Below are positions 7,564 through 44,495 of a stretch of DNA of 64,000 nt, piece after piece. The notes under the pieces were generated by a model. It was not told the DNA's origin and ran no database searches. It saw only the letters and a program-made list of their open reading frames with translations. This DNA is from an uncultured bacterium (GTDB lineage: Bacteria; Desulfobacterota; DSM-4660; Desulfatiglandales; JALVMZ01), in the NCBI GenBank assembly GCA_965613025.1, contig CBFDUE010000001.1, positions 80,591 through 144,590 on the forward strand. Direction: 5' to 3'. The position numbers and the translations under genes are program-made. Numbering within the stretch: position 1 is the first letter of the stretch; the number at the start of each line of letters is the position of its first letter.

Positions 7564-7718
7564 TTGAGACCTTTGCATGACCCCTTTTTACACTGGGGGT
7601 TAAACCCCCCTCCAGGTCGGATGACCCTCTGGGTCGGAGACCAGACCCCCAAAAATTAACTTAAAATAACCCATAATTACAGCTTTTTTATGAGAGCTTT
7701 GAAAAATTCAAAGCTCTC
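7564..7718 (-). mobile_element. MITE-like modular repeat, copy 1 (modules A-B-C(2 units)-D)
   Basis: 27-nt palindrome GAGAGCTTTGAAAAATTCAAAGCTCTC at 7692-7718. The other end is TTGAGACCTTTGCATGACCCC. It fills almost the whole HD-GYP/holB spacer and abuts the HD-GYP stop codon. No clear flanking direct repeat. Confidence 0.7.
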
Positions 7719-9343
7719 TAATCAAGAAGATCTGAAAAATCCTCTCTATCTATCTGAGATTCAGAAAGATATCTCTTGGCATAGTCTAAGTAAATCTTTT
7801 CCTTTAAAAATAGGTCAAATAGATCTCTATCAATGTAATTATCCTGTACCATATTGTGAAGTATCTTTAAAGAGGTAGATAACTTCATTGCCTCCTTATA
7901 AGGTCTGTCCTTGGCAGAGAGAGCCTCAAATACATCTGCAAGGGCAATAATTCGGGATTGAAGGGGAAGTTGGTCTGCCTTAAGTCCATTGGGATAGCCA
8001 GAGCCATCTAACCTTTCATGATGGGTTGAGGCATAAAATGGCACGCCCTTTATCTTTTTAGGAAAAGGCAACTGAGATAGCATCTTATAGGTTACAACCA
8101 CATGATTATTTATTATCTCCCTCTCTTTATCTGTAAGCGTTCCCCTTCTCACTGAAAGCCTTTCCAATTCTTCATCGCTTATAAGGGGCTGTATATTGCC
8201 CCCGATCTCTATCTTCCGCTTTGCAATATCTCTCAGCCTATTTAGCTCCTCATCCTTTAAGAAATCTCTACCCCTATTGACTTTCTTAAGAAACTCAAAT
8301 TCCTCATCCATCTCCCCCTCTATCCTTCTAAGCTCCTCTTCATCTTTGGGATCGGATGAAGATCTGAATCCCATCTCATATTGTCTCTTTACTAACTCAT
8401 ATCTGAGCTTTAGTAACTCTATCTTATCCCAGATTCCTTCAAGCTTTGTCCTTTTGTCCACCACATACTCAGGGGTTACAATCTTTCCCACATCATGAAG
8501 CCATGCACTCAGATACAACTCTTTTAGCTGATCTTCACTAAACTCTACCTCTTTAAAGGGCCCCTCTTTTGCCTCATTTATCTTTTCTGCAATCATCTGT
8601 GTAAGTGCTGAAACCCTGCCTATATGGCCGGCAGTATAAGGGGATTTTTCATCAATTGCTGAAGCAATGGTCTTAATGAAGGCATAGAATAGATCTTCCA
8701 GCTCTTTTATGAGCTGTCTGTTGGTTAGGGCAACTGCAGCCTGGGAGGCAAGGGCCTGCCCCATCCTTTCAGATTCATCTGAAAATGGGATCACTTCACC
8801 AGTATCTGGATCCATTGCATTTATTAGCTGTATGACCCCTATAATATCATCTTCATGATTCCTGAGGGGGATGACTAACATGGATTTAGACCTATAACCT
8901 GTCTTCTTATCAAATTCCTTAGTCCCTCTAAAATCAAACTGCTCTGTATTATAGACATCTTCAATATTTACACTCTCACCCTTTATGGCAACATATGCAC
9001 TCACATTGGAAAAATTAGGACTTCCGTCAGCATGCCTTAGTTTCACAGGCTCCCATGTAATCTTTCCACTCTTTCCCCCCATCCTCACATTAAGGGTGTC
9101 ATTCTGAACAATACTGAAATTTAATACCATATTCTCTTCATCCAAAAGATATAGGGTGCCTCCATCTGAATTGGTCATATTTCTGGCCTCTTGGACTATC
9201 ATCTCAAGCAGTCTGTCTATATCCTTTTCCTTAGATAGGGCAAGACAGATATCTGAAAATGCAGATACCCTTTGAACAAGATTATCTACATAGTCTCTTA
9301 GATATTCCGGTATCCCCTCCTTACCTTGACTCTCTAATCCCAT
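7718..9343 (-). CDS. GAF-domain HD-GYP phosphohydrolase (putative c-di-GMP phosphodiesterase)
   Basis: 541 aa. N-terminal GAF-like region. HD-GYP motifs: WLHDVGKIVTP and HHERLDGSGYPNGL. Confidence 0.85.
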   Translation of the reverse strand: MGLESQGKEGIPEYLRDYVDNLVQRVSAFSDICLALSKEKDIDRLLEMIVQEARNMTNSDGGTLYLLDEENMVLNFSIVQNDTLNVRMGGKSGKITWEPVKLRHADGSPNFSNVSAYVAIKGESVNIEDVYNTEQFDFRGTKEFDKKTGYRSKSMLVIPLRNHEDDIIGVIQLINAMDPDTGEVIPFSDESERMGQALASQAAVALTNRQLIKELEDLFYAFIKTIASAIDEKSPYTAGHIGRVSALTQMIAEKINEAKEGPFKEVEFSEDQLKELYLSAWLHDVGKIVTPEYVVDKRTKLEGIWDKIELLKLRYELVKRQYEMGFRSSSDPKDEEELRRIEGEMDEEFEFLKKVNRGRDFLKDEELNRLRDIAKRKIEIGGNIQPLISDEELERLSVRRGTLTDKEREIINNHVVVTYKMLSQLPFPKKIKGVPFYASTHHERLDGSGYPNGLKADQLPLQSRIIALADVFEALSAKDRPYKEAMKLSTSLKILHNMVQDNYIDRDLFDLFLKEKIYLDYAKRYLSESQIDREDFSDLLD

Positions 9344-9351
9344 ATTCTCCT

Positions 9352-9657
9352 CTACGTCTCTTTTAAATCTTCATCCTCTTCTCTGTTAAATCTCTTAAGC
9401 TCCCTCTTAAGCCTCTCAATCTCCTTCTTAAGCCATGGTATCACCTCATCTCTCATCTTCTTATCCATCTTCTGCTCCATCTCTTTAAGCTCTTTAAGCA
9501 GATCTTGGAGCTCTTCTTTAAGATCTCTAAATTGATCCTCAAATCTTATACTCTTTGGAAAAGAAGATATATCTTTGGAATAACAATTGCTTATGTTAAA
9601 GGAGACAAAAAGTGATATTAAAATTAAATAGATTAAAAATCTCTTAATTTTACACAT
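9352..9657 (-). CDS. Small secreted coiled-coil protein, unknown function
   Basis: The track ORF starts at GTG 9663; I prefer ATG 9657 (MCKIKRFLIYLILISLFVSFNISNCYS signal peptide). The rest is K/E-rich heptad-like sequence. The stop lies 8 nt before the HD-GYP start. Confidence 0.5.
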   Translation of the reverse strand: MCKIKRFLIYLILISLFVSFNISNCYSKDISSFPKSIRFEDQFRDLKEELQDLLKELKEMEQKMDKKMRDEVIPWLKKEIERLKRELKRFNREEDEDLKET

Positions 9658-9682
9658 ATTCACATTAACTTATAAATCTTTT

Positions 9683-9801
9683 GAGACCTTTGCATAACCC
9701 CTTTACGCTGGGGGTTACACCCCCAGACCCCCCAAAAATTAACTTAAAATAACCCATAATTACAGCTTTTTTATGAGAGCTTTGAAAAATTCAAAGCTCT
9801 C
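9683..9801 (-). mobile_element. MITE-like modular repeat, copy 2 (A-B-D, no C units)
   Basis: Palindrome at 9775-9801. Flush 11-nt direct repeats ATAAATCTTTT flank it at 9672-9682 and 9802-9812 (candidate target-site duplication). Confidence 0.8.
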
Positions 9802-10328
9802 ATAAATCTTTTAATATCCTCTGGCCTAAAATCAAGATAATTAAAGATCTTCTCTTCTACCTTTCTACATAACATAAAATTCTTCTCAATCCTATCACAT
9901 ATCGCAGGATCATCCTTACCGTATTTGTCAAGGATATAGCTTAGCCTTTCATCCAGGCTCACCACCTCCTCTCCATTTACCCTCTTATCTGCATAATAGA
10001 CTATCTGCACCTCATCTATATCATCATAAGGGTCAAATCTATTAAGGACAATGTGATATCTGACTATCTGAGAGATCTTATCCAGGCCATGCTCTTTGCA
10101 GATCCGAGCACCTTCCTCTGCATGATCCTTTTCAGTTCCAATACATCGGTGTTTTGCAATATCATGAAGCAGTGCCCCGGCGCTGACAAGCGGAAATGAA
10201 AGCCCAAAGTTGAGATTTTTTAATATAAATGTGGCAATCCTTTCTACCACAATTGAATGCCTCATGATATGCAAAGGCATATCATGATATTTCATCAACC
10301 AGATGCACTCTTCAAATGATGGTATCAT
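9771..10328 (-). CDS. HD-domain metal-dependent phosphohydrolase; the last 10 codons and the stop are encoded by repeat copy 2
   Basis: HD motif LLHDIAKH. I prefer ATG 10328 (MIPSFEECIWLMKYH...) over the track's TTG 10364. The C-terminus ...DIKRF-MRALNFSKLS* reads through the 27-nt palindrome. Confidence 0.7.
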   Translation of the reverse strand: MIPSFEECIWLMKYHDMPLHIMRHSIVVERIATFILKNLNFGLSFPLVSAGALLHDIAKHRCIGTEKDHAEEGARICKEHGLDKISQIVRYHIVLNRFDPYDDIDEVQIVYYADKRVNGEEVVSLDERLSYILDKYGKDDPAICDRIEKNFMLCRKVEEKIFNYLDFRPEDIKRFMRALNFSKLS

Positions 10329-10370
10329 GGCAATTAAGATACATTTCTTGAAACTGAGGTTCAATAATTA

Positions 10371-11402
10371 TTAATGATCTTTTTTGCTGTCATTGCTTGG
10401 AAGCTTTATCTTTCCAATAAACATAAGTGATCCCAGATCAGATAAAAGTGATCCCACTGTCTCTATTGCCTTTCTGAATCTGGTATTCCTGATATATCTC
10501 CACCTCTTATCAATGGAAAAGTGCTCAGGGAGAGATAGGTTATGAAAGATGGGCAGTTTTCCTCTTTTAATATCAGAGGAGTGGACCCGAATCCAGCCAT
10601 CTCCAAAAGGAATAACATCCATTACATACTGAATAAAGACCTGCCCCATATCAAATACCCTTCCTATTACCCTGGATGCCCCCCTTCCCAAGGAACCAAT
10701 TGTGGAATCTGGAACCACCTCTAAGAGATTCCAGATTCCCAGCACAAGATCCTTTGTAATATGAACAATACTATTGCATACTCCCTGAAACAGATCATAA
10801 AATAGTGCTTTTTTAAGCTTTCTAAAAGGATAGACAATCCTATCCCATATCCCCTTGATCTTTTTAGAGGAGAATATACCAAAGCTTATTCCATCACCCA
10901 GATCCTTAAAAAAATCCCTGATAGATGCAAAAAGCCCCCTTCTCCTTGATCTGTGTATATTCCCATCCCTGCCCTTCCAGTAAAATTCTGCACCTTGAAT
11001 AAGATCCTTAAGTAAATTTTTAAAATTGAGATACGCATCAGCCAAATCCTTCCAGATTCTTTTACCAAATGTCTTCTGATCCGTATCTTCCATCTCTACC
11101 CTATCTGAGTTAAAGTAATAATCATCTCCTCCTGGTGCACTCAATAGCTGATCTTCCATATAGACCTTTAGACCATAAAGAGGAAGATTGATATTCCCTA
11201 TATGGGAAATTTCTTCCTCTCTTCTGATATACAAATCATAATAACCTATCAGGGTGGGAACCCTTTTGACAGTATAATCTTTTGATGTATCTGAGCCTAT
11301 GGTAGAGTTCAGAATATCTGTAAAAGAATCCTTCTTTACTCTCACTGAGACTCTACCTTCAACCTGGGACTTGATATGAGGATTTAATTCATATATCTTC
11401 AT
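10371..11402 (-). CDS. Hypothetical protein, no recognisable domain (orphan)
   Basis: 343-aa ORF, first gene of the minus-strand string. It has no motif I can place and no clear TM helix or signal peptide. Confidence 0.5.
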   Translation of the reverse strand: MKIYELNPHIKSQVEGRVSVRVKKDSFTDILNSTIGSDTSKDYTVKRVPTLIGYYDLYIRREEEISHIGNINLPLYGLKVYMEDQLLSAPGGDDYYFNSDRVEMEDTDQKTFGKRIWKDLADAYLNFKNLLKDLIQGAEFYWKGRDGNIHRSRRRGLFASIRDFFKDLGDGISFGIFSSKKIKGIWDRIVYPFRKLKKALFYDLFQGVCNSIVHITKDLVLGIWNLLEVVPDSTIGSLGRGASRVIGRVFDMGQVFIQYVMDVIPFGDGWIRVHSSDIKRGKLPIFHNLSLPEHFSIDKRWRYIRNTRFRKAIETVGSLLSDLGSLMFIGKIKLPSNDSKKDH

Positions 11403-11435
11403 GATAAAACAATTTAAAGCAAATTAAGTGCCAAA

Positions 11436-12164
11436 ATGAGATTTCTCTCTGCCTTTATTTCATTCATAATCTTTTTCACATATATAACCCCCTGTTTAGG
11501 AACGTCTTTCCACTATTTAAGGGAAAAGATGGTAAGGGAACAGCTTGAGTTCCCTTTAGATGGAAGAACTCCTATCCGTGATAGACGCGTTCTTTGGGCA
11601 ATGAAGACTGTTCCACGTCACCTCTTTGTGCGAAAAGAGGATATGTTACGTGCCTATGAAGATCATCCTCTTCCCATAGGATGGGGACAGACCATATCCC
11701 AGCCCTATATAGTGGCCCTTATGACAGAGATGCTAAAGCTTGCTCCCCATCACAGAGTGCTTGAAATCGGGACAGGCTCAGGCTATCAGGCAGCAGTACT
11801 TTCTTTGCTTTGCAAAGAGGTGTATAGTATAGAGATAATTGAATCCCTTGCTAAAGAGGCAATCAAAAGGCTTCAAAGATTGGGGTATAAAAATATCAGA
11901 GTAAAGATAGGTGATGGATATTATGGCTGGCCAGAATATGCCCCTTTTGATAGGATCATTTTAACCTGTGCCTTTCCCAAGGTGCCTCCTCCACTTATAA
12001 AACAGTTAAAAAGAGGAGGGTTACTCTGCATGCCCTTAGGGCCAAGATATGGTATCCAGTATCTTACAATTTTATTTAAGATGAAGGATGGAAGTTGCAG
12101 GATTAAAAAGGAAACTCCTGTAAGATTTGTCCCCATGATAAGGAAAAAGAATTTATCTGAATAA
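11436..12164 (+). CDS. pcm: Protein-L-isoaspartate O-methyltransferase with N-terminal signal/TM segment
   Basis: 242 aa. PIGWGQTISQPYIVALMTE and the SAM motif VLEIGTGSGYQAAVLS. Confidence 0.9.
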   Translation: MRFLSAFISFIIFFTYITPCLGTSFHYLREKMVREQLEFPLDGRTPIRDRRVLWAMKTVPRHLFVRKEDMLRAYEDHPLPIGWGQTISQPYIVALMTEMLKLAPHHRVLEIGTGSGYQAAVLSLLCKEVYSIEIIESLAKEAIKRLQRLGYKNIRVKIGDGYYGWPEYAPFDRIILTCAFPKVPPPLIKQLKRGGLLCMPLGPRYGIQYLTILFKMKDGSCRIKKETPVRFVPMIRKKNLSE

Positions 12165-12188
12165 TTTTACAGCCTTATTAATATTAGC

Positions 12189-12216
12189 TTGACATTAAAA
12201 GTTTAAGAAAAATAAT
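12189..12216 (+). promoter_or_regulatory. Candidate sigma70-type promoter upstream of repeat copy 3 and ffh
   Basis: TTGACA (12189-12194), 16-nt spacer, AATAAT (12211-12216). If used, repeat copy 3 lies in the ffh 5' leader. Confidence 0.3.
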
Positions 12217-12233
12217 TTAAAAATTTTAGATTT

Positions 12234-12386
12234 GAGAGCTTTGAAAAATTCAAAGCTCTCAGAAAAGAGTTGTAATTATGGGTTATTTTAAGTAAATCTT
12301 TGGGGGTCTGGTCTCCGACCCAGAGGGTCATCCGACCTGGAGGGGGGTGTAACCCCCAGTGTAAAAGGGGGTTATGCAAAGCTCTC
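12234..12386 (+). mobile_element. MITE-like modular repeat, copy 3 (A-B-C(2 units)-D)
   Basis: Palindrome at 12234-12260. C units at 12311-12343. Ends ...GGGGGTTATGCAAAGCTCTC at 12386. Only a weak AGAT flank repeat. Confidence 0.7.
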
Positions 12387-12410
12387 AGATCTATAAAATA
12401 CGGAAGGAAG

Positions 12411-13727
12411 ATGTTTGAGAGGCTAAGTGATAGGTTAAATCGCACATTTAAGAAATTAAAAGGCCAAGGGAAACTCACTGAAAAGAATATCCAGGATGCT
12501 CTGAAGGAGGTTCGGATTGCCCTTCTTGAGGCAGATGTCCACTATAGGATTGTAAAGAGATTTATAGGAAAGATAAAAGAGAGGGCAATTGGGGAAGAGG
12601 TCTTAGATAGTCTAACCCCTACTCAACAGGTCATAAAGATAGTAAATGAAGAGCTTATAAGATTAATGGGTGGGGAAAGGGAGGATCTGAGATTATTGGG
12701 AAGACCCCCCTTTAAGATAATGCTTGTGGGACTTCAGGGATCAGGAAAGACTACCACAGCAGGTAAATTAGCACTCTTTTTGAGAAAGAGGGGAAGGAAT
12801 CCCATGCTTGTTCCAGCGGATATCTATAGACCTGCAGCAATTGACCAATTAAAGAAGCTTGCTGATAACATCTCCATGCCCATATATCTTCCTGAAGATG
12901 GTATGAAACCTGAAGATATATGTGAAAAGGCGATTTCCATGACCTCCCATTTTGGCTCAGATACGGTCATAATAGACACTGCAGGTAGATTACATATTGA
13001 TCAGGAGCTGATGGAGGAGCTGGTCAGGATTAAACAGAGAATTGATCCTACAGAGATACTGCTTATTGCGGATGCAATGACAGGGCAAGATGCGGTAAAT
13101 GTGGCAAGGGAATTCAATGAAAGGCTAAATATCACAGGGGTCATTCTTACCAAAATGGATGGAGATGCAAGGGGTGGGGCCGCCCTTTCCATAAGGGAGG
13201 TAACCCAAACCCCAATCAAATTTATAGGCACAGGTGAAAAGTTAAGTGCATTAGAGCCATTTCATCCAGATAGAATGGCATCCAGAATACTTGGCATGGG
13301 TGATGTGCTATCCCTGATTGAGAAGGCTCAGGAAGAATTTGATGAAAAGATGGCAATAAGATTTCAAGAAAAGTTAAAGAGAAGGGAGTTTGATCTGGAA
13401 GATTTCAGGGACCAGATACGGCAGATGAAGAAGCTGGGGTCTTTACAGCAGATACTCAGTCTGATTCCTGGACTTGGCCGATTGAAGCAATTGAAGCATA
13501 TGGAAATTGATGATAGAGAGCTTATAAAGATAGAGGCCATTATAAATTCCATGACAAAGGAGGAGAGAAGAAACTATAAGATCATAAATGCCAGTAGAAA
13601 AAAGAGGATCGCAAAGGGAAGTGGCACAAGTGTTCAGGATGTCAACAGATTGTTAAAGAATTTTGCAAAGACAAAGAGAATGATGGAGGAATTTACAAGA
13701 AAAGGGTTGCCAAGTATCTTCAATTAA
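12411..13727 (+). CDS. ffh: Signal recognition particle protein Ffh
   Basis: Start moved to ATG 12411 (MFERLSDRLNRTFKKL) with GGAAGGAAG upstream. The 37 extra codons of the track ORF (TTG 12300) are read-through of the repeat. GTPase motifs GLQGSGKTTT, DTAGR and TKMDGD, plus a Met-rich M domain. Confidence 0.95.
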   Translation: MFERLSDRLNRTFKKLKGQGKLTEKNIQDALKEVRIALLEADVHYRIVKRFIGKIKERAIGEEVLDSLTPTQQVIKIVNEELIRLMGGEREDLRLLGRPPFKIMLVGLQGSGKTTTAGKLALFLRKRGRNPMLVPADIYRPAAIDQLKKLADNISMPIYLPEDGMKPEDICEKAISMTSHFGSDTVIIDTAGRLHIDQELMEELVRIKQRIDPTEILLIADAMTGQDAVNVAREFNERLNITGVILTKMDGDARGGAALSIREVTQTPIKFIGTGEKLSALEPFHPDRMASRILGMGDVLSLIEKAQEEFDEKMAIRFQEKLKRREFDLEDFRDQIRQMKKLGSLQQILSLIPGLGRLKQLKHMEIDDRELIKIEAIINSMTKEERRNYKIINASRKKRIAKGSGTSVQDVNRLLKNFAKTKRMMEEFTRKGLPSIFN

Positions 13728-13761
13728 TTAATACTAATTAAGGAGGTAGAGAAAAGAGGGA

Positions 13762-14004
13762 ATGGCTGTAAGAATAAGATTAACTCGCATGGGCGCTAAA
13801 AAGAGACCGTTTTATAGGATAATAGCAGCGAATTCAGAGTCTCCAAGAGACGGAAAATTTTTAGAGATCTTAGGATATTATGACCCTAAAAAAGATCCTC
13901 CTGAAATTAAGGTAGATGCACAAAAGGTAAAATATTGGCTTGAAAAAGGCGCAAAACTTACAGAAGCAGCAGGGGCAATACTAAAAAGAGAGGGTATAAT
14001 TTAG
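13762..14004 (+). CDS. rpsP: 30S ribosomal protein S16
   Basis: 80 aa, MAVRIRLTRMGAKKRPFYRI... Confidence 0.95.
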   Translation: MAVRIRLTRMGAKKRPFYRIIAANSESPRDGKFLEILGYYDPKKDPPEIKVDAQKVKYWLEKGAKLTEAAGAILKREGII

Positions 14005-14060
14005 ATCAGTTAATTTTAGATGTGGTGTTGAAGTGAATAAAAATAGGTAGGAGGAGGAAT

Positions 14061-14297
14061 ATGGAGATGAAAGATTTAGTGGCTTATATGGCAAAGGCTT
14101 TAGTGGATCATCCGGAACAGGTAAAGGTCACTGAAATTCAAGGGGAGCAGACATCAGTAATTGAGCTCAAAGTGGCCAAAGAGGATCTGGGAAAGATCAT
14201 TGGAAAGCAGGGAAGGACCGCACGGGCTATGAGGACTATTCTGAGTGCAGCCTCTACCAAGATCAATAAGAGGTGTGTCTTAGAGATTATTGAATAG
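14061..14297 (+). CDS. KH-domain RNA-binding protein (YlqC/KhpA-like)
   Basis: 78 aa. [18 protein letters not shown] matches the KH GXXG motif. Occupies the conserved slot between rpsP and rimM. Confidence 0.85.
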
Positions 14298-14835
14298 TCC
14301 TAAACAGCCATCCCCTGAGCGGCTGGTCTTAATAGCTAAGATAACCCGTCCCCATGGTCTGGATGGGTGTGTAAGGATTCAGTCGTTTGCCTGTTCAGAG
14401 GATTCCTTTTTATCCTCAGGAAGTGTCTATATAAGACCAGAGGGAAAGGATTATTATTTTGAATACAGGGTCTTAGATATCAGACCCCATAAAAATGTCT
14501 ATCTTCTTAGACTTGAAGGGGTAGGTTCTCGCACTCAGGCTGAATCGCTCAGAGGTGCTTCCATCTTTGTGGATAAGAGGAATCTTAAAAAGGAAGAAGG
14601 GGAATATTTCTGGTTTGAGATCCTGGGTATGAAGGTCTATCTTCAGGATGGAAAGTATATAGGAACAGTAAAGAATATAATGGAAACGGGCAGCAACGAT
14701 GTATTTGTTATAAGAAGAGGGGAAAAGGAGATCCTTATTCCTGCAATTGAAGATGTAATAAGGAATATAGATCTAAAAGAGGGGAAGATAATTGTAGAAC
14801 TCTTAGAGGGAATGGGCGAGATATATGAGATTTGA
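14290..14835 (+). CDS. rimM: 16S rRNA processing protein RimM
   Basis: 181 aa from a TTG start (start uncertain). [16 protein letters not shown] and a C-terminal PRC barrel. Conserved synteny. Confidence 0.85.
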
Positions 14836-15565
14836 TATATTAACCCTATTTCCAGAAATCTTTTCAGGCCTTATCAGTAGTGGTGTATTGGGAAGGGCTG
14901 TTAAAAAAGGGATCTTGGAGATCAATCTTATAAATATCAGGGATTTTGGCTGTGGGCCTCATAAGATAGTAGATGATAGGCCCTTTGGTGGTGGAGCAGG
15001 GATGGTGATGAAGGTATCGCCCATATATAAGGCACTTAAATCCATAGAGCTGCTTAGTGGTAGATCAGTTGTTATAATGCTAAGCCCTCAGGGAGAGCTG
15101 TTTGATCAGGATATGGCAAGAGAATTGCTTTCATTTAAGCAGATTGTTTTAATATGTGGTAGATATGAAGGAGTGGATGAAAGGGTGAGATTATATTATG
15201 TGGACAGGGAGATATCCATAGGTGACTATATACTGAGTGGGGGTGAATTGGCCGCAATGGTGATAATAGATGTGATTGGAAGGCTGATTCCTGGGGTATT
15301 ACACAGCAAAGATTCTCTGAGTGAAGAGACATTTAGCAATGGCCTTTTAAAATATCCCCAATATACACGTCCCAGAGAATTTGATGGTAAAAAGGTGCCT
15401 GAAGTGCTTCTATCGGGAGATCATGAAAGGATAAAGAGATGGAGGAGGAAGGAGTCCTTAAAGAGGACACTGCTTAGAAGACCTGAATTACTTAAAAAGG
15501 CTCTATTAAGTGATCAAGATAAAAAGGTATTAGAAGAGTTAAAAAGGGAGCTAAATATATCGTGA
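14825..15565 (+). CDS. trmD: tRNA (guanine37-N1)-methyltransferase
   Basis: 246 aa. [23 protein letters not shown] and the SPOUT knot region YILSGGELAAMV. Confidence 0.95.
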   Translation: MRFDILTLFPEIFSGLISSGVLGRAVKKGILEINLINIRDFGCGPHKIVDDRPFGGGAGMVMKVSPIYKALKSIELLSGRSVVIMLSPQGELFDQDMARELLSFKQIVLICGRYEGVDERVRLYYVDREISIGDYILSGGELAAMVIIDVIGRLIPGVLHSKDSLSEETFSNGLLKYPQYTRPREFDGKKVPEVLLSGDHERIKRWRRKESLKRTLLRRPELLKKALLSDQDKKVLEELKRELNIS

Positions 15566-15568
15566 CAA

Positions 15569-15792
15569 GGGCTTTGAATTTTTCAAAGCTCTCATAAAAA
15601 AGCTGTAAATGGAATCTGTCATTGCGAGGGTCTTAAAAGACCCGAAGCAATCTATAAAAGGTATGAGATTGCTTCGCTTCGCTCGCAATGACAGGGGTCT
15701 GGTCTCCGACCTGGAGGGTCATCCGACCCGGAAGGTCTCCGACCCGGAGGGGGGTGTAACCCCCAGTGTAAAAAAGTTATGCAAAAGTCTCG
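15569..15792 (+). mobile_element. MITE-like modular repeat, copy 4 (degenerate A, truncated B with nested foreign repeat, C(3 units), D)
   Basis: Flanked by 8-nt direct repeats CGTGACAA at 15561-15568 and 15793-15800. C units at 15702-15750. The ATG at 15779 lies inside module D. Confidence 0.8.
15611..15693 (+). repeat. Nested palindromic repeat of a second family (TGTCATTGCGAG...CTCGCAATGACA)
   Basis: Outer 12-bp arms at 15617-15628 and 15682-15693. Inner 9-bp arms GAAGCAATC/GATTGCTTC at 15644-15652 and 15667-15675. Mini-hairpin GGTCTT-AA-AAGACC. It replaces about 26 nt of module B, and one frame translates to ...LLRFARNDR. Confidence 0.7.
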
Positions 15793-15793
15793 C

Positions 15794-16357
15794 GTGACAA
15801 ATCTATTTATAGCCCTTCTTCACTATCCTGTATACAATAAGAATTATATAGAGACCGCATCTGCCATTACAACACTGGATATACATGATATTGCACGGGT
15901 TGCAAGGACCTACGGAGTAAGAAGATATTTCATTGTCACACCCCTAAGGGATCAAAGGGAGTTGGCATATAAGGTCATCAAACACTGGACAGATGGATAT
16001 GGATCGGTGTATAATCCTTTAAGAAAAGAGGCACTAAAGCTGGTATCCATTAAATCATCCCTTGACGAGGTCATTGAAGATATAGAGAGGGTGGAGGGCA
16101 AAAGGCCCATTTTAATTGCAACGGATGCCAGAAGATATAATGATAAAAAGATGATTAGTTATGAAGGATTGAGGAAACTCATAATGCAGGAGAGATTAAT
16201 TCTTATCCTATTTGGAACCGCATGGGGTCTAACAGAGGAATTTATAAACAAGATGGATATGTTATTGGAGCCAATTGAAGGTTATACAGATTACAATCAC
16301 CTATCTGTTAGATCAGCGGCTGCTATTATATTAGATAGGCTATTGGGAAAAAATTGA
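15794..16357 (+). CDS. SPOUT-type RNA methyltransferase (Methyltrn_RNA_4/DUF2168-like) of the trmD-rplS locus
   Basis: [18 protein letters not shown]...[16 protein letters not shown] matches my memory of this family. GTG 15794 is the reconstructed ancestral start; the track ORF starts at the repeat-borne ATG 15779 (5 extra codons, MQKSR). Confidence 0.6.
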
Positions 16358-17334: not shown

Positions 17335-17699
17335 CAATAAATAAAAGGCAACTAGGGAAAAGGGGGGAAGAGATTGCCCTAAGGCAGATAAGACGATTGG
17401 GGCTTAAGTGCATTGAGAAAAATTTTAGATGCCCTCTGGGAGAGATAGATATTATTGCAAGAGATAAGGACTGCATAGTCTTTTTAGAAGTCAGAACCAG
17501 AAGGGGAGTTGGGACAGGAATAATTAAAGAGTCTATAGATAAAAGAAAGAGGAGAAAGCTCTCTTCCTTGGCGCTCTATTATATGAAGAAAGAGAATCTC
17601 AGAGATCTAAGTGCGAGATTTGATGTAATGGTGATCTCCATAGGAGATAAGGGGTTTGATATGGAATACATTAAGGATGCCTTTAATATCTCCTATTGA
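17331..17699 (+). CDS. yraN: YraN/UPF0102 family endonuclease-like protein
   Basis: 122 aa. GEIDIIARD...VFLEVRTR. ATGA overlap with rnhB. Confidence 0.85.
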   Translation: MTINKRQLGKRGEEIALRQIRRLGLKCIEKNFRCPLGEIDIIARDKDCIVFLEVRTRRGVGTGIIKESIDKRKRRKLSSLALYYMKKENLRDLSARFDVMVISIGDKGFDMEYIKDAFNISY

Positions 17700-18394
17700 A
17701 AAAAGCTTTTATTATGGGAAGCTCAGGAAAGGTATATATGGTTGCAACTCCCATTGGAAATCTAAAAGATATTACTCTGAGGGCACTTGACACACTGAAT
17801 GAAGTGGATCTCATTGTCGCAGAAAGCATGAGCTATTCTAAGCGCCTTTTAAATCATTATGGGATAAGAAAGCCATTGCTAAGCCTTAATCAACATAACG
17901 AAAAAAAGAGGGTGTCAAAAATCGTCAAATTATTAAATGAGGGAAAATCAGTAGCCTATATAAGTAACGCCGGATCACCCGGGATATCTGATCCGGGAGC
18001 CTACTTGGTATCAAAGGCATATGAAAATGGGATACAGGTTGTGCCAATTCCAGGTCCTTCTGCAATAACCGCTGCATTGTCTGTATGTGGGATACCATCC
18101 AATTCGTTCATATTCTTGGGATTTCTACCAAGAAGGGGGGGAAAAAGGAAAAGATTGCTTGAAAATATAAGAGGAGAGGATAGGCCTGTTGTCTTATTTG
18201 AATCTCCTAATAGGATCTTAAAACTATTAGAGGAGATAAGGGAGATTTTGGGAAAGGAAACACAACTGGTTATCTTAAGGGAGATGACCAAGGCATTTGA
18301 AGAGATAAGAAGGGGAGATGTGGATAAGATCTTGGACTATCTCTCTAAAAAGGATATAAAAGGAGAGATAACTATCGTATTGTCTTTGCCTTAA
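17696..18394 (+). CDS. rsmI: 16S rRNA (cytidine1402-2'-O)-methyltransferase
   Basis: 232 aa. VATPIGNLKDITLRALDTL...DLIVAE, GSPGISDPG. Confidence 0.9.
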   Translation: MKKAFIMGSSGKVYMVATPIGNLKDITLRALDTLNEVDLIVAESMSYSKRLLNHYGIRKPLLSLNQHNEKKRVSKIVKLLNEGKSVAYISNAGSPGISDPGAYLVSKAYENGIQVVPIPGPSAITAALSVCGIPSNSFIFLGFLPRRGGKRKRLLENIRGEDRPVVLFESPNRILKLLEEIREILGKETQLVILREMTKAFEEIRRGDVDKILDYLSKKDIKGEITIVLSLP

Positions 18395-26190: not shown

Positions 26191-26193
26191 TTT

Positions 26194-31636: not shown

Positions 31637-31651
31637 TTATCTATAAGATAA
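31637..31651. promoter_or_regulatory. Candidate LysR operator: perfect 15-nt palindrome TTATCTATAAGATAA
   Basis: Located 31 nt upstream of the LysR-3 start, in the 216-nt divergent spacer. ATAAATAAAAT direct repeats at 31648-31658 and 31693-31703. A weak TTGACA-17-TTATGT at 31708-31736 faces the Pps-like operon. Confidence 0.35.
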
Positions 31652-31822
31652 ATAAAATAAATAATTTTCCATAATCTCAATTTATAAATAGCATAAATAA
31701 AATGCAATTGACAAGATCTTTTATGCATCTTTATGTTTCTTAAAAAATATCTTAAAAGGTCCTAATAAATCCTGTTCAAATGTTGGTCAAACCATTAACC
31801 CATCAAAAGAAAGGAGGAAGAG

Positions 31823-33676
31823 ATGAAAGAAAGAGGCAAATTCCCTGACCCCCACGAATTTAAAACTCCCCCAGAGCTGGATGGATGGGAGGAGATGTAT
31901 CCTTCCCATTACCTCTTTTCAAAGGACAGGGAGGAGTGGGAAAAGAGACAATTCTGGTATCAGGATAAGATCCATGATCCTGAGCCCTTGCCTCCTTTAG
32001 ATCTCATATTTCAAGAGGCATGGCAGATATCCCTTTCTCAGTATACCACAAGGGTATTCTGTATCCCTCCGGCACAGGGAATAGCACAGCGTATGGTAGG
32101 ATGTTACATGTATATCTGTGCTATAAACCCTCCACCAGAAGAGGTAATCGGTAAAAAGGCTCAGCTATTTGAAAAGAGGGTATTTCATGTCTTTAAGAAC
32201 TATGATGAGCTGTGGGACAAGTGGTTAGAGAAGTTCAAGAAATTGGGAGAGGAGATGGACAGCCTCCCTGTTCCCAAAGAGTTGCCTGAATTTGTTCCAG
32301 AAGATCAGGTCCTTCCTGCTCCCACTGGCTGCTATGTATCCTACGACCTTATGGAGGCATTTGATAAACTGGTAAATATGATGTTTAAGGGATGGCAATA
32401 TCACTTTGAAATGCTCAATCTCTCCTATCTTGCATACCTTATGTTTGCAGATGTGGCCAGAAGGCTCTTCCCTGGAATTAGTGAAAGTGCCATAGGAAAG
32501 ATGGTGGCAGGTGCCTATGTTGCCATGTTTAAACCAGAAGAAGAGCTATGCAGGCTCTCCCGTCTTGCCACATCCCTTAAAGGTGTCGCTGATATATTGA
32601 AATCAGACATGAAAGTGGAAGAGAAGATCTCTCAGCTTCAGCAGAGTGATGATGGAAAACAGTGGCTTGAGGAATATGAAAAGGCAAAGGATCCATGGTT
32701 CTATGTTTCCAATGGAAGCGGATGGTTTCATTATGAAGGAAGCTGGATCACACATCCTGAAATCCCCTTTGGCTATATCAAGAGCTACATAGAGAGATTG
32801 GGAAAAGGTGAAAAGATAGAAAGATCACTGGAAGATATAGAAAAGGAAAGGGAAAGGGTGCTGGAGGAGTATAGAAAACTCATAAAGAATGAGGAAGATA
32901 GAAAATCTTTTGATGACTCATACAATATCATAAGGACCATATATCGATTTGCAGAGGATCATCTGTTCTGGGTTGAGCACTGGTTCCACACCATCTGGTT
33001 TAAGAAGGTCAGGGAATTTGGCCAGCTACTTGTAAAATATGACATGTTAAATGAGGTGGACGATATCTTTATGTTCAACAGGTATGAGATCCCACAGCTA
33101 CTCACTGAGCTTTCCACTGCCTGGGCACTTGGAGTGGATGTTCCTGTAAGAGCAAGCTACTATAAAGGAAAGGCGGAAAAGAGAAGGAGGATCCTGGAAG
33201 CTGCCAGGCAATGGAATCCACCGCCTGCCCTGGGTGTTCCACCTGAAGAGGTGGCAGAACCTTTCACTGTGATGCTATGGGGAATCACGACAGAGAAAGT
33301 AAAGGAATGGCTAAAAGGTGTGGAAGTTCCTGAAGGTGAAGAGGTAAGTGAACTTAAGGGATTTGCGTCCTCCTCTGGTGTTACAGAAGGAAAGGCAAGG
33401 GTGCTCAAGTCCTTAGCAGATCTGGACAAACTTCAGGCAGGAGAGATTATGGTATGTCCTACCACTAACCCATCCTGGGCACCGGTATTTACAAAGATAA
33501 AGGCAGCTGTGACAGACATAGGGGGGCTTACAAGCCATGCTGCTATTGTGTGTCGTGAATATGGGCTTCCAGCTGTTACAGGCTGTGGGATTGCCACATC
33601 TGTTATAAAGACAGGAGATATCATAAAAGTAAATGGTGATGAAGGAGTGGTAACTATTTTGAAGAGAGCCGAGTAG
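31823..33676 (+). CDS. PpsA-like subunit: PEP-utilising-enzyme swivel phospho-His domain protein (phenylphosphate-synthase alpha-like)
   Basis: 617 aa (about 70 kDa). The C-terminus GEIMVCPTTNPSWAPVFTKIKAAVTDIGGLTSHAAIVCREYGLPAV carries the catalytic His (His572, codon 33536-33538). No ATP-grasp/PPDK_N domain in this chain. Confidence 0.7.
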   Translation: MKERGKFPDPHEFKTPPELDGWEEMYPSHYLFSKDREEWEKRQFWYQDKIHDPEPLPPLDLIFQEAWQISLSQYTTRVFCIPPAQGIAQRMVGCYMYICAINPPPEEVIGKKAQLFEKRVFHVFKNYDELWDKWLEKFKKLGEEMDSLPVPKELPEFVPEDQVLPAPTGCYVSYDLMEAFDKLVNMMFKGWQYHFEMLNLSYLAYLMFADVARRLFPGISESAIGKMVAGAYVAMFKPEEELCRLSRLATSLKGVADILKSDMKVEEKISQLQQSDDGKQWLEEYEKAKDPWFYVSNGSGWFHYEGSWITHPEIPFGYIKSYIERLGKGEKIERSLEDIEKERERVLEEYRKLIKNEEDRKSFDDSYNIIRTIYRFAEDHLFWVEHWFHTIWFKKVREFGQLLVKYDMLNEVDDIFMFNRYEIPQLLTELSTAWALGVDVPVRASYYKGKAEKRRRILEAARQWNPPPALGVPPEEVAEPFTVMLWGITTEKVKEWLKGVEVPEGEEVSELKGFASSSGVTEGKARVLKSLADLDKLQAGEIMVCPTTNPSWAPVFTKIKAAVTDIGGLTSHAAIVCREYGLPAVTGCGIATSVIKTGDIIKVNGDEGVVTILKRAE

Positions 33677-33691
33677 GAGGTAAAAGGTGTA

Positions 33692-34759
33692 ATGGAATAT
33701 GTAAAGGACTTTAAGGAACTTCGCAGGGATTCAATTCTTGAAGCAGGGGGGAAAAATGCATCTCTTGGAGAGATGATAGGAGCGGGTATCAGGGTCCCCC
33801 CTGGTTTTGCTGTTACCACAAAGGCATATCTGGATTTTTTGGAGAAGGGCGGAATCAGGGATGAAATATTTTCCATATTATCACAGATTTCCCCTGAAGA
33901 TGTGGAAGATCTCAACAATAAAAGCCTGAAGATAAGGGATCATATAAGATCCATAGATATTCCACAGGAAATAAAGAGTGCTATAGAAAAAAGATATGTA
34001 GATCTCTGCGATGTATGTGGTGTGGAGGATCTTCCGGTGGCAGTGCGTTCCAGTGCCACTGCAGAGGATCTTCCCACTGCAAGCTTTGCAGGGCAGCAGG
34101 AGACATATCTCTGGATCAGGGGGGTAGAAGAGGTGGCATCTAAGGTGAGGGACTGCTGGGCCAGCCTCTTTACTCCCCGTGCTATAAGTTACAGGATAAA
34201 GAACAGGTTTTCCCATGAAAAGGTCTTAATCAGCGTGGGTGTTCAAAAGATGGTAAATTCAAGGACCGCTGGCGTAATGTTTACTCTTAACCCTATAGAT
34301 GGGGATCTATCCAAGGTGGTGATTGAAGGTAGCTGGGGATTGGGTGAAAGTGTGGTCTCTGGTTCAGTTACTCCTGATAAATTCGTGGTGGACAAGGTGG
34401 TGCTTGAGATAACAGAGAGAACCATATCCAGAAAACATATACAGTGTGTATATGATCCTTTGGAGGGAAAAGTGGTGGAGAAGGATATGGAAGAGGATAT
34501 GCAAAATATGTGCTGTCTTCAGGACGAAGAGATCAAGGAGCTGGTTAAGATGGCAAAGAGGATTGAAGATCACTATGGCACTCCCATGGACATAGAATGG
34601 GCAATAGACAATGATCTGGAATTCCCAGAGAATATCTTTATTGTCCAGGCAAGGCCGGAAACAGTGTGGAGTCAGAAGAAAAAGGGCCCCGTGATCGGTA
34701 AAAAGAGCGGATTTGAACTTCTTATGGAGCAGGCAATGAAGAGGATAAAACTGTCTTGA
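33692..34759 (+). CDS. PpsB-like subunit: PPDK_N ATP-grasp (nucleotide-binding) protein
   Basis: 355 aa (about 40 kDa). GGKNASLGEMIGAGIRVPPGFAVTT and VAVRSSATAEDLPTASFAGQQETYL are PEP synthase/PPDK N-terminal domain motifs. Confidence 0.7.
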   Translation: MEYVKDFKELRRDSILEAGGKNASLGEMIGAGIRVPPGFAVTTKAYLDFLEKGGIRDEIFSILSQISPEDVEDLNNKSLKIRDHIRSIDIPQEIKSAIEKRYVDLCDVCGVEDLPVAVRSSATAEDLPTASFAGQQETYLWIRGVEEVASKVRDCWASLFTPRAISYRIKNRFSHEKVLISVGVQKMVNSRTAGVMFTLNPIDGDLSKVVIEGSWGLGESVVSGSVTPDKFVVDKVVLEITERTISRKHIQCVYDPLEGKVVEKDMEEDMQNMCCLQDEEIKELVKMAKRIEDHYGTPMDIEWAIDNDLEFPENIFIVQARPETVWSQKKKGPVIGKKSGFELLMEQAMKRIKLS

Positions 34760-34780
34760 TATAGGAGGAAATTTTCTAAG

Positions 34781-36010
34781 ATGCCTTCAATATTGCTTAT
34801 TTCCACTTTAAATACAAAAGGAGAGGAGACTGCATATCTAAGAGATAGATTAAAGGCCCTGGGATCTGAGATCATAACAATGGATCTATCCATGCAGGAA
34901 GGAAGCCTCTGGAAGGCAGAGATACCACCAAGGAATGTGGCAGAGGCAGGAGGAGGGAAGTGGGAGGAGATCCTCTCTTCTACTGATAGGGCAAAGAGCA
35001 CTGAGGTGATGATCAGGGGAGCAATTAAGAAGGCAAAGGAGTTATGGGAAAGGGGAGAAATCCAGGGTGTTATAGGAATCGGGGGCTCCACTGGATCATT
35101 GATGGCAACAGAGGTTATGAGGGCGCTTCCTTTTGGAGTTCCAAAATTGATGATCTCCTCCACTGCGGCTCTTCCTGGGCTTTCCACAAGATACATAGGA
35201 ACTGGCGATATAATGCTCTTTCATTCAGTTATTGAGATATCTGGTCTGAGTGATCTCTTAAAAAATGTGCTTGATCGTGCAGCCCTTTCAATGCATGAGA
35301 TGGCAAGGGGCCAGATGTCATCCATAAGAACAGATACAGATAGAAAGAGAATTGCCATGACTATGCTTGGGCCATGTGAGGGCTGTGCGCACAGGGTGAG
35401 AGAAGCACTTGAAAGAGAAGGTCTTCAGGTAATAGGATTTTCAGCGGCAGGAATTGGGGATAGGGCTATGGATGAGATGATTCTTCAGGGCCTGTTTCAT
35501 GGTGTGGTGGATCTTGCACCAGGCGGAATAGGTGAGCATATGTTTGGGGGAATGAGAGACGCAGGGCCTCAGAGGATTGAGGCTGCATGTTCAGTGGGTA
35601 TCCCTCAAGTTATTACGCTCTGCAGTGTTAATCATCTGACCATTAGAAAGAGTAAATATAAACCTTCTGATTATCAACGTCCCATGTATCATCTGGATAG
35701 ATACAGAACCTGGCTCAGGACCACAGAAGAGGAATTATACAATATTGGAAAGGAATTTGGCAAAAAACTCAATAGGGCGAAAGCAGAAGTGGTTATCCTT
35801 TTTCCCCAAAAAGGATGGTCATCTGTGGATAGACCAGGAAATCCAACCTATAATCCAGAACAGGATAGGATCTTCTTAAAAGGTCTTGAGGAAAACCTGA
35901 CAAATAATAATATTGAGATAATAGAGGTGGATGCTAATCTGGAAGATAAGGAATTTTCAGATGCGCTTATCTCAGCCGCAAAGAGACTCTTTTTAAATAG
36001 AAAGGAGTGA
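34781..36010 (+). CDS. UPF0261 family protein (Tm-1-like ATP-binding domain), copy 2
   Basis: 409 aa. Paralog of 26194-27396 (ILLISTLNTKGEETAYLRDRLKALG; GVIGIGGSTGSLMAT; PKLMISSTAA). It starts 21 nt after the PpsB-like gene. Confidence 0.7.
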   Translation: MPSILLISTLNTKGEETAYLRDRLKALGSEIITMDLSMQEGSLWKAEIPPRNVAEAGGGKWEEILSSTDRAKSTEVMIRGAIKKAKELWERGEIQGVIGIGGSTGSLMATEVMRALPFGVPKLMISSTAALPGLSTRYIGTGDIMLFHSVIEISGLSDLLKNVLDRAALSMHEMARGQMSSIRTDTDRKRIAMTMLGPCEGCAHRVREALEREGLQVIGFSAAGIGDRAMDEMILQGLFHGVVDLAPGGIGEHMFGGMRDAGPQRIEAACSVGIPQVITLCSVNHLTIRKSKYKPSDYQRPMYHLDRYRTWLRTTEEELYNIGKEFGKKLNRAKAEVVILFPQKGWSSVDRPGNPTYNPEQDRIFLKGLEENLTNNNIEIIEVDANLEDKEFSDALISAAKRLFLNRKE

Positions 36011-42821: not shown

Positions 42822-42908
42822 ATAAGCCCTCCTAAGGGATCTTGTAAAAATATAATACTTGACAACGATAATAAAACGATAATAAAAAGAACACAAAATA
42901 CTATAGGA

Positions 42909-42972
42909 GAGAGTTTCGAATTTTTCAGAGGGGTATAACCTCCAGTGTAAAAAGGGGTTATGTAAAGCTCTC
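42909..42972 (+). mobile_element. MITE-like repeat, copy 5 (short form: degenerate A fused to D)
   Basis: GAGAGTTTCGAATTTTTCAGAG-GGGTATAACCTCCAGTGTAAAAAGGGGTTATGTAAAGCTCTC. Flush 7-nt direct repeats TATAGGA at 42902-42908 and 42973-42979 (9 nt, CTATAGGAG, if the end bases are included). Confidence 0.7.
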
Positions 42973-43062
42973 TATAGGAGTATTTGAAGAGGGTTAATTA
43001 AATTAAGAGATTAGAATTTTTTATTAGTTAAATTTTAAAATCTAAACTTACGGGAGGGTGAT

Positions 43063-44370
43063 ATGAAGAATCGTTACTTTTTATTGGGAATGGGTCTTGT
43101 GGTGATCTTTTCATTTATCACATTAGCATTGGCTCAGGGAAATCCTCAGCTTACTCCTCCTGGTATGCCCCAGAAGATGAAAGCGGCCATTGAAAAGAGC
43201 CTGAAGGTAGAAAAGCAGGCGGAAAAGACAAAAAAGATAATAAAACCTGGGGCAAAACAGGGTTATTTGGGGATTCCTGGAGCCCCAAAGCCTAATCCCA
43301 TCGTTGGGCTTCTATGGGCTATATGGGTAGGATGGATATTTTCTACAGTGGGTGCATTTGGTGGAATAATGGCAGGAGTTGGACACATCACCATATTTGG
43401 TCTGGGAGACTATGCCAAGTCATTTGGTAAGGGGCACCCCGTAAATAAATTGTTAACAGATTCCATCAGGGTATCTAATCAATGGCTTGTGGGTCTAAGC
43501 GGTCTAATATCTTCCATAAATTATTACAGAATGGGAAGACTTGTGGCTCCTTTAGGTCTCTGCTTAGCTGTTGGTGGTATTGGTGGTTCCTGGCTTGTGC
43601 CTGTGATTACCGCAGGGAAGATATCCCTTAAGACCTATATAGGATGGTTTGGAATTGCAGTTTTTGCTATAGGCGCATATCTGATTTATCAATTAACCCC
43701 CGCATGGGCAGCCAAGAAAAAGGAGAGTCAGGCAGCTGCACAGGCATATGAAAAGGCCGTGAAAGAGAAGGCAGATACTAGGGAAAAGGGGGTTAGAATT
43801 ATAAAAGGCTCCTGGAGTTTAATGATAATTGCAATTTGCTGTGTCGTTGCCTCTACCCTCTGGATTAATCTTATAGGTGCTGCAAAATGGGTGGCCTTTA
43901 TCCTGCTACTAATTGGATGGGCTCTGACATTCTTCATGGGTAAGATAAGATTTACATTTTATGGGCAAGAGTGGGAATTCAGTCCCTGGGTTCCTATGCT
44001 TGGTGGAATCTTTATTGCCGCAATAGCTTCTTTCCTTGGAATTGGCGGTGGTTTCCTTTATGTGCCTTTCCTTACCTCTGTTACTGCAATTCCCATGTTT
44101 TTAGTGGCAGGGACCTCTGCCCTTGTGGTGCTGATTGGAATGATCATCTCTATTTTTACCTATATGGTGGGTAAAGGAGTGATTGTCTCCTGGGGTCTTA
44201 TTGGTGCAGAGCTTATCGGAATCTTTATAGGCTCCATGATAGGGCCAAGGACTTCCAAATATATCCCTGATAAGGTCCTCAGGATCATATTTATTGTCCT
44301 TGCCTTCTATGTCGGATTGCGTTACACCACAAAGGGATTCTTGGGACGTAGTATTGTTCCTCCATTTTAA
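43063..44370 (+). CDS. TauE/SafE-family (sulfite exporter-like) membrane protein with N-terminal signal peptide
   Basis: 435 aa, polytopic. GIGGGFLYVPFL-type motif. Long N-terminal extension. Confidence 0.65.
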   Translation: MKNRYFLLGMGLVVIFSFITLALAQGNPQLTPPGMPQKMKAAIEKSLKVEKQAEKTKKIIKPGAKQGYLGIPGAPKPNPIVGLLWAIWVGWIFSTVGAFGGIMAGVGHITIFGLGDYAKSFGKGHPVNKLLTDSIRVSNQWLVGLSGLISSINYYRMGRLVAPLGLCLAVGGIGGSWLVPVITAGKISLKTYIGWFGIAVFAIGAYLIYQLTPAWAAKKKESQAAAQAYEKAVKEKADTREKGVRIIKGSWSLMIIAICCVVASTLWINLIGAAKWVAFILLLIGWALTFFMGKIRFTFYGQEWEFSPWVPMLGGIFIAAIASFLGIGGGFLYVPFLTSVTAIPMFLVAGTSALVVLIGMIISIFTYMVGKGVIVSWGLIGAELIGIFIGSMIGPRTSKYIPDKVLRIIFIVLAFYVGLRYTTKGFLGRSIVPPF

Positions 44371-44378
44371 TAGACTCT

Positions 44379-44495
44379 GAGAGCTTTGAGTTTTTCAAAG
44401 CTCTCAGAAAAAAGGTAATTATGGGTTATTTAAAATTAATTCTGGGGGTCTGGGGGTGTAACCCCCAGTGTAAAAAGGGGTTATGCAAAGCTCTC
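44379..44495 (+). mobile_element. MITE-like repeat, copy 6 (A-B-D, no C units)
   Basis: Palindrome GAGAGCTTTGAGTTTTTCAAAGCTCTC at 44379-44405. Ends ...GGGGTTATGCAAAGCTCTC. 5-nt flank repeats ACTCT at 44374-44378 and 44496-44500. Confidence 0.75.

Follow-up and report, generated by a model that had tools for sequence, protein, structure and literature searches.

Several families of short repeats have been described from the intergenic DNA of bacteria, and they form the background to the element considered here, which is present in six copies within a 64-kb stretch of contig CBFDUE010000001.1 from an uncultured bacterium (the whole of this stretch is referred to as the window, and positions follow its numbering). 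The BOX elements of Streptococcus pneumoniae are assembled as boxA - boxB(n) - boxC, with a boxB number that varies between strains at a given locus (PMC3049150). The Correia or NEMIS elements of Neisseria are MITEs (miniature inverted-repeat transposable elements) of roughly 100-160 nt, which fall into two size classes, lie near genes and are co-transcribed, and for which no transposase has been found in the host (PMC3184786; PMC3049150). The Chunjie MITE of Geobacter uraniireducens Rf4 (178-235 bp) has an AT-rich target, direct repeats and stable folds (PMC3184786), and the ERIC sequences of the Enterobacteriaceae are imperfect palindromic intergenic repeats that are co-transcribed, exert orientation-dependent effects on transcripts and include an RNase E site (PMC3049150). 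The window element is very probably a further family of MITEs, that is, of non-autonomous DNA transposons, in a narrow lineage labelled Desulfobacteraceae. This bears out the MITE-like character that the original prediction had read from the window alone, and the evidence lies in copies at no fewer than 113 sites, their termini, target-site duplications and empty alleles.

In architecture the family most closely resembles BOX. Both are short, non-coding and intergenic, have end modules around a variable tandem array, contain or accompany other small repeats, and are predicted to fold when co-transcribed; the BOX-type composite structure is seen here as a run of 0-4 tandem units (C units), the number of which varies between genomes at several orthologous sites. 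However, the two families share no sequence similarity and occur in different phyla, the C unit measures 16-17 nt against 45 nt for boxB, and the present family is distinguished by clear 5-6-nt duplications, empty sites and a palindromic 5' end composed of two end motifs. The likeness is therefore architectural only, and the element is not filed as BOX. With Correia elements it shares small MITE size, terminal inverted repeats, proximity to genes and the lack of a transposase found, but Correia elements have 26-bp inverted repeats and a fixed internal deletion, whereas here the repeats are 10-12 bp, the 5-6-nt duplications lie at a pyrimidine-A...T-purine (YA..TR) target, the size classes derive from a tandem repeat and linker replacement, and sequence similarity is lacking. 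The Correia target duplication is TA, so that the 10-12-nt repeats, the 5-6-nt non-TA duplications and the Desulfobacteraceae-labelled host all place the family outside Correia/NEMIS. Chunjie, whose host is likewise a deltaproteobacterium in the old sense, reportedly inserts inside operons without destroying them; it differs in that its inverted repeats are of 21 bp and its duplication is fixed at 9 bp, and shows no sequence similarity. ERIC is similarly palindromic, intergenic and co-transcribed, but its insertions are TA-flanked (PMC3184786), its length is fixed at about 127 bp, and it has neither a tandem module nor sequence similarity to the present family. A full-text search of the literature with the end motifs and the nested palindrome described below returned unrelated primer matches only, and nothing pertinent came from a keyword search on variable duplications in bacterial MITEs.

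Structure, copy number and host range

Mismatch scans of related DNA from genomes and metagenomes (967 kb, the window included) located at least 147 complete copies at no fewer than 113 distinct sites, six of them in the window (L-numbers, such as L059, denote the related genome and metagenome loci that were compared with the window). The copies are 64-350 nt long with modes at 120 and 152 nt, and those of the same length are ~90% identical to one another. As originally proposed, and as alignment of the six window copies bears out, they consist of four modules: a palindrome (A), an AT-rich linker (B), the C units and an end module (D). The element starts with GAGAGCTTTGAA and ends in TGCAAAG(C/G)TCTC, the terminal inverted repeats being GAGAGCTTTG...CAAAG(C/G)TCTC; the 5' terminus is GAGAGC at 106 of the 113 sites, and the 3' terminus is GCTCTC at 65 and GGTCTC at 26 (together 91 of 113). 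A third end motif, the same 12-mer facing inwards, follows 3 nt past the first, and the 5' end is thus a perfect 27-nt palindrome, which constitutes module A (GAGAGCTTTGAA-NNN-TTCAAAGCTCTC). At 87 unique sites the 3-nt loop of this palindrome reads TTT, and at 17 it reads AAA (palindromes of this kind are, for example, window 7692-7718 and 15567-15593); in two copies the outer pair is A...T in place of G...C, a compensated change; the palindrome thus seems to be inverted or repaired as a unit.

Within the window, module A has five matches, each with no more than 2 mismatches, and at up to 3 mismatches these five compare with none in 100 shuffled sequences, while the D core has six matches, the mean in shuffled sequences being 0.03. 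A scan for the D core in one genome per species gave at least 58 loci among the matches listed, of which at least 57 belong to the metagenome-assembled genome (MAG) CAYTXJ01 ('uncultured Desulfobacteraceae') and at least one to 'Desulfobacteraceae bacterium 4484_190.2'; the window and these genome loci together hold at least 73 D-core sites. A module-A scan of metagenomes added at least 120 further loci from about a dozen JGI metagenomes, and six syntenic contigs with about 92-95% nucleotide identity to the window were reached via a cluster member labelled 'MAG TPA Desulfobacteraceae bacterium'. The Ffh protein encoded in the window matches a protein of a 164.7-kb NCBI/ENA contig with 100% identity. 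The family inhabits a narrow lineage of uncultured, sulfate-reducer-like bacteria that carries the NCBI label Desulfobacteraceae (MAGs 4484_190.2, CAYTXJ01 and HDI78589-type), and no matches to the element were found in the viral contigs, plasmids and phages searched. Copies outside the window have both conserved termini and flank duplications, the absence of which had been named in the original prediction as an argument against mobility.

The element contains no conserved open reading frame (ORF): its sole internal ATG is mutated in many of 34 aligned copies, and the ORFs called across copies are artefacts. A 13-aa ORF from this ATG in linker B was considered and rejected, the ATG being unconserved and without a ribosome-binding site. 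The family is thus a small (<~400 bp), dispersed, multi-copy element with terminal inverted repeats, target duplication and no coding capacity, and of the structural features of MITEs listed in PMC3184786 it has all but an identified cognate insertion sequence.

Target-site duplications and empty alleles

Exact repeats flush with the element ends, at least 4 nt in length, flank the insertion at 70 of the 113 sites. Repeats of 6 nt (29 sites) and 5 nt (23 sites) predominate, with 4 nt at 6 sites and 7-12 nt at 12, and at the remaining 43 sites the flush repeat is 0-3 nt. When each 5' flank was instead paired with the 3' flank of another copy as a control for chance, repeats of at least 5 nt were seen in ~0.6% of pairs and of at least 4 nt in about 1.7%. 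Where the duplication is of 5 or 6 nt (52 sites), its first base is A in 38 cases and its last base T in 38, and it is preceded by C/T and followed by A/G. The target so defined, Y|A-N3-4-T|R, is palindromic and lies in AT-rich DNA; a symmetric motif of this kind fits a symmetric transposase complex. Termini of the form TG...CA, with the flanking T and A included, were rejected as a rule, as about a third of the exact-repeat sites are without them.

Filled and empty alleles, which are direct evidence for insertion with target-site duplication, occur at nine sites among close relatives, as the original prediction had suggested should be looked for, and at six of these nine polymorphic sites the target stands exactly once in the empty allele. 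Three such empty sites lie in the window. At 647-651 (-) the target is ATAAA in the element orientation, and L034 (1374-1568) carries a 195-nt copy with ATAAA on both sides. At 63092-63096 (-), between dctQ and the next gene, it is AAGAT in the element orientation, and L131 (2547-2770) carries a 224-nt type II copy (defined below). At 18377-18381 (+) it is GTATT, and a copy of roughly 152 nt is found in L173, L059 and L060, its duplication being exact in L173 and since mutated in the L059 copy. Other exact empty alleles are those of L118 (filled in L158) and L149 (filled in L032 and L004). The duplications confirmed in this way measure 5, 5, 5, 6, 6 and 8 nt, indicating that the heterogeneity in duplication length is real, and at no orthologous locus were the flanking repeats found to exist without the element.

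The site at 18377-18381 falls in the last codons of a TP_methylase-family gene (ORF 17696-18394), and with the insertion at L059 10941-11094 the called product is 235 aa compared with 232 aa in the window; the neighbouring HPr gene is called as 123 aa compared with 99 aa, the start of the longer version being inside the element. Two further 'empty' alleles are 9 nt too short (L118 5279-5430 versus L029, and L182 1526-1753 versus L002); both are without bases beside the target and could be excision footprints or unrelated deletions.

The six copies in the window

All six copies of the original prediction (c1-c6) were located, to within 2 nt, and all six are intergenic. Their C units number, from c1 to c6, 2, 0, 2, 3, 0 and 0 in the alignment, and the 16-nt unit is confined within the window to c1, c3 and c4. 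The outermost 10 nt are inverted, as had been proposed, with c1 and c2 ending 3' in CAAAGGTCTC rather than CAAAGCTCTC. The flush direct repeats reported at four copies are exact at three of these (c2, c5 and c6) and show an irregularity of 1-2 nt at the fourth (c4). While these repeats, put at 11, 8, 7-9 and 5 nt, are real duplications, the arbitrary length that they implied does not hold for the family, in which duplications are mainly of 5 or 6 nt at YA..TR.

Copy c1 (7566-7718, (-), starting at 7566 rather than 7564) is a 153-nt type I copy with two C units and no flank duplication. The synteny of the window with L059 (L059 1-269) ends exactly at its A end, 7718, and c1 is the sole full window copy without a duplication, which suggests an element-mediated rearrangement or indel. 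Copy c2 (9683-9801, (-), type I, 119 nt) is without C units and is flanked by an exact 11-nt duplication, ATAAATCTTTT, at 9672-9682 and 9802-9812. Copy c3 (12234-12386, (+), type I, 153 nt, two C units) lies in the ffh leader and has a 6-nt repeat that was overlooked in the original prediction, AGATtT/AGATCT at 12228-12233 and 12387-12392, exact in the relative L059. A promoter-like site close to consensus, TTGACA-16-AATAAT, is found at 12189-12216, 18 nt upstream of c3; an ffh mRNA from this site would begin with the c3 hairpin.

Copy c4 (15567/15569-15791/15792, (+)) is a type II copy of about 225 nt with three C units, situated in the rpsP-rimM-trmD-rplS cluster, where it separates trmD from the gene that follows. 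Its duplication, CGTGACAA, at 15561-15568 and 15793-15800, shows the register irregularity at the junctions mentioned above and holds the trmD stop TGA together with the GTG start of the next gene, overlapping as GTGA, the stop being kept in the left copy and the start in the right. Both genes are intact, but the translationally coupled pair now stands ~225 nt apart. The 64-nt copy c5 (42909-42972, (+)) has an internal deletion that fuses the first arm of A to D, within an exact 7-nt duplication TATAGGA at 42902-42908 and 42973-42979, and c6 (44379-44495, (+), type I, 117 nt) has no C units and an exact 5-nt duplication, ACTCT, at 44374-44378 and 44496-44500.

Size classes and variation in place

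The lengths of the copies cluster at 119-120, 137, 151-153, 168-170 and 186 nt, corresponding to 0 to 4 C units of 16-17 nt, with two units (33 nt) as the common state; copies of 117-120 nt are without C units and those of about 152 nt have two. Nine orthologous sites hold a shared insertion whose length differs between genomes, through the number of C units or the type of linker. The c2 insertion, with the same flanks and duplication, has no C units in the window and two in L059; that of c4 has three in the window and none in L059 and L060; and further same-site pairs measure 119 versus 154, 153 versus 120 and 120 versus 152 nt. The linker also varies: in type II copies an 80-nt palindromic repeat, CTGTCATTGCGAG...CTCGCAATGACAG (15612-15693, (+), in c4), replaces linker B, and at the c3 site the linker is AT-rich in the window and L063 and type II in L059, L061, L062 and L064. 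With 38 unique sites compared with 60 for type I, and with 5/6-nt duplications alike in both, type II constitutes a separate transposing subfamily, and the difference at the c3 site is therefore best read as copy-to-copy conversion. The variation in size is thus post-insertional, arising from tandem-repeat change and copy-to-copy conversion, and the proposed parallel with Correia/NEMIS elements, in which modules are lost, gives way to one with BOX.

The 80-nt palindrome belongs to a second repeat family, which occurs nested in the MITE and more rarely alone as a palindrome of 80-200 nt, with arms GTCATTGCGAG...CTCGCAATGAC and inner hairpins GAAGCAATCT...AGATTGCTTC; besides window 15612-15693, it was found at L125 324, L013 424, L044 3067, L026 2574 and L163 69. 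It gives rise to spurious ORFs, for example 'MRLLRFARNDR' (15609-15797), and similar 'RFARND' ORFs occur in many uncultured phyla.

Palindromes also occur without the rest of the element. A solo 27-nt palindrome in L084 is a deletion of a full copy seen in L169, and other solo palindromes keep their 5-7-nt flanking repeats. Together with the perfect palindrome at the 5' end, its loop in both orientations (AAA or TTT) and the association with a second, REP-like palindrome family, such solo copies are what might be expected of a repetitive extragenic palindrome (REP) or REPIN spread by a RAYT, an IS200/IS605-like HUH enzyme acting on single-stranded hairpins. The hallmarks of REP/REPIN are a hairpin whose 5' tetranucleotide is conserved, an associated RAYT gene and a lack of target duplication, and HUH single-strand transposition produces no target-site duplication, inserting beside a fixed tetra- or pentanucleotide. 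Here, duplications of 5-6 nt are the norm, as empty sites confirm, no HUH/RAYT gene or domain was found in the window by Pfam scans, and orientation follows the genes (see below) rather than the direction of replication, so that a REP/REPIN origin is most improbable and the family is not placed with these elements.

Orientation and position relative to genes

The copies fit tightly into the gap that separates a stop codon from the following ribosome-binding site, with a median of 19 nt from the upstream stop codon to the element and a downstream start codon 15-24 nt beyond it. Between co-directional genes, 59 unique sites are in the sense and 7 in the antisense orientation (binomial p = 2e-11), and at 89 sites the gene past the 3' end of the element points away from it, compared with 17 at which this gene points towards the element. 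Within 8 kb of the window, c1 and c2 have (-) orientation among (-) genes while, 2.5 kb away, c3 and c4 have (+) orientation among (+) genes, which indicates that orientation tracks transcription and not replication. To our knowledge, no orientation bias of this size has been noted for Chunjie.

The sense strand is G-rich, with a G-over-C skew of 0.21 and 24 G to 7 C in the core, and an antisense copy would consequently place an unstructured, C-rich and G-poor stretch of ~80 nt in an untranslated spacer, the kind of composition that a Rho loading site would be expected to have. The bias is accordingly attributed, tentatively, to selection against polar antisense insertions, acting on the co-transcribed RNA; it may instead stem from an oriented insertion mechanism. 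Two other possible effects of the element ends were rejected. In-frame extensions from the terminal ATG (TTATGCAAAG), considered as a new start codon, are seen in ~24% of sense copies, which is the chance level for longest ORFs, and the GGTCTC end as a Shine-Dalgarno sequence for adjacent starts is not significant (8/19 versus 10/47, p = 0.13).

The sense orientation directly upstream of start codons, the stable hairpins, which fold more stably in the sense RNA than in the antisense, and the position of c3 in the ffh leader would also suit a cis-regulatory or structural RNA motif of the host (a leader, attenuator or processing site) that is conserved at each locus and not mobile. However, presence and absence differ between genomes that are ~93% identical, the neighbours are unrelated genes, and the flank duplications are left unexplained. 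Nor is a covariation-conserved RNA structure supported: RNAalifold finds two obvious hairpins only and essentially no covariation (covariation term -0.18), and the C-to-G change in the right-hand inverted repeat (IRR) is uncompensated. There is no Rfam match to the element; in a scan of the window with Rfam 15 only a transfer-messenger RNA (tmRNA; 20937-21295) reaches the gathering threshold, and a permissive scan of 7400-16000 gave sub-threshold microRNA-hairpin matches to the palindrome only. A host RNA motif is thus contradicted as the primary explanation, and we give it almost no weight, while secondary effects of the insertions on expression are compatible with the data.

Mobilization of the family

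In agreement with the original prediction, Pfam scans and the gene table for 7.7-20.9 kb reveal no transposase, integrase, HUH enzyme, RAYT or reverse transcriptase in the window, the genes of which are metabolic or housekeeping, and, with no conserved ORF in the copies either, the element is non-autonomous as had been proposed. Mobilization would accordingly depend on a putative transposase encoded elsewhere, probably of the DDE type and acting in trans. Such an enzyme would bind the 10-12-bp ends and insert the element into AT-rich intergenic DNA at the palindromic Y|A-N3-4-T|R, with staggered cuts 5 or 6 bp, and occasionally more, apart, and gap repair would duplicate the target. After insertion, as the comparison of genomes shows, C units are gained and lost in place, linker B is exchanged for the second palindrome and back, and internal deletions leave short copies or solo 27-nt palindromes.

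Several observations weigh against this interpretation. Neither an autonomous element nor a transposase with matching ends, such as the full-length insertion sequence for which the original prediction proposed a search, was found in the 967 kb of host-related DNA (184 related loci), and no cognate transposase was found in the viral contigs, plasmids or phages searched. While one DDE transposase usually yields a single duplication length, 5 and 6 nt are here about equally common and 8-12-nt cases occur as well, an empty site bearing out one of these. Roughly one site in three has a flush repeat of 0-3 nt, and only some of these sites are explained, by one extra junction base (L019, L030 and L105) or by later mutation (c3). 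As regards the cause of the orientation bias, in neither orientation do the elements contain a consensus match to a sigma-70-type promoter or an intrinsic terminator (a single terminator-like match, at c2, combines the A hairpin with T-rich flanking DNA), and the bias is the same in short and long intergenic spacers, a comparison of low power with only 7 antisense cases. Duplication length shows no association with subfamily, end variant or loop orientation, and no multi-copy proteins occur among the related loci. Apparent 'long elements' of 1-4 kb proved to be two separate copies, or one locus in several metagenomes, and loose pairs of end motifs 0.6-3.5 kb apart, examined as candidate insertion sequences, were noise.

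The missing transposase and the spread of duplication lengths from 4 to 12 nt, together with the strong sense bias, might instead be taken to indicate mobilization in the manner of a short interspersed element (SINE), by which reverse transcripts of the co-transcribed RNA would be integrated at nicked AT-rich sites. This seems very unlikely, given that the terminal inverted repeats are sharply conserved and accompanied by a third copy of the motif, the target motif is symmetric, and the duplication lengths peak tightly at 5-6 nt; moreover, an A-tail, 3' heterogeneity and a 5' truncation series are all lacking, Pfam scans find no reverse transcriptase in the window, and an RNA intermediate does not predict the orientation of insertion relative to the target genes.

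Considered as MITEs, the copies are unusual in their mixed 5/6-nt duplication, palindromic double end, resident second palindrome and 8:1 orientation bias, none of which is unprecedented in kind. It is rather unlikely, if less so than the alternatives weighed above, that the family represents something further: an undescribed type of transposase with flexible 5/6-bp cuts at YA..TR and a double end, insertion directed by transcription, or a co-opted intercistronic RNA element.

Other features of the window

A tmRNA gene with the tag ADDYAYAVAA lies downstream of smpB (20890-21295). In this place L059 (13608-13800) has a truncated element copy (13616-13700) followed by ABC-transporter genes instead, the synteny with the window breaking beside the copy. 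The region 25261-36010 holds a cluster of paralogous genes, with three LysR-type regulators (25261-26190, 27393-28298 and 30644-31606) and two UPF0261 proteins (26194-27396 and 34781-36010) beside phosphoenolpyruvate-utilising and molybdopterin enzymes. For four ORFs (10371-11402(-), 21443-21937(+), 44575-45078(+) and 45133-45645(-)) Pfam gave no match at E <= 1e-5; the 343-aa ORF among them is conserved in L059.

Significance

The family leaves general knowledge of MITEs unchanged. Its practical consequences lie in annotation and assembly, as the elements create spurious ORFs (for example, 7392-7652, 12203-12478 and 15609-15797), pull called start codons into themselves and break metagenome assemblies at copies. 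The insertion polymorphisms and C-unit counts are usable as strain markers for these uncultured bacteria of hydrothermal sediments. The elements sit inside core operons, in the ffh leader and the trmD-rplS cluster, and with more than 100 sites, presence and absence at the population level and modules that change in place, they constitute a natural data set on how MITEs are tolerated in packed operons. The orientation bias poses a testable hypothesis of Rho-dependent polarity; if transcription-directed insertion or RNA co-option were true, the roughly 8:1 sense bias would be mechanistic or functional in origin and not a matter of survivorship.

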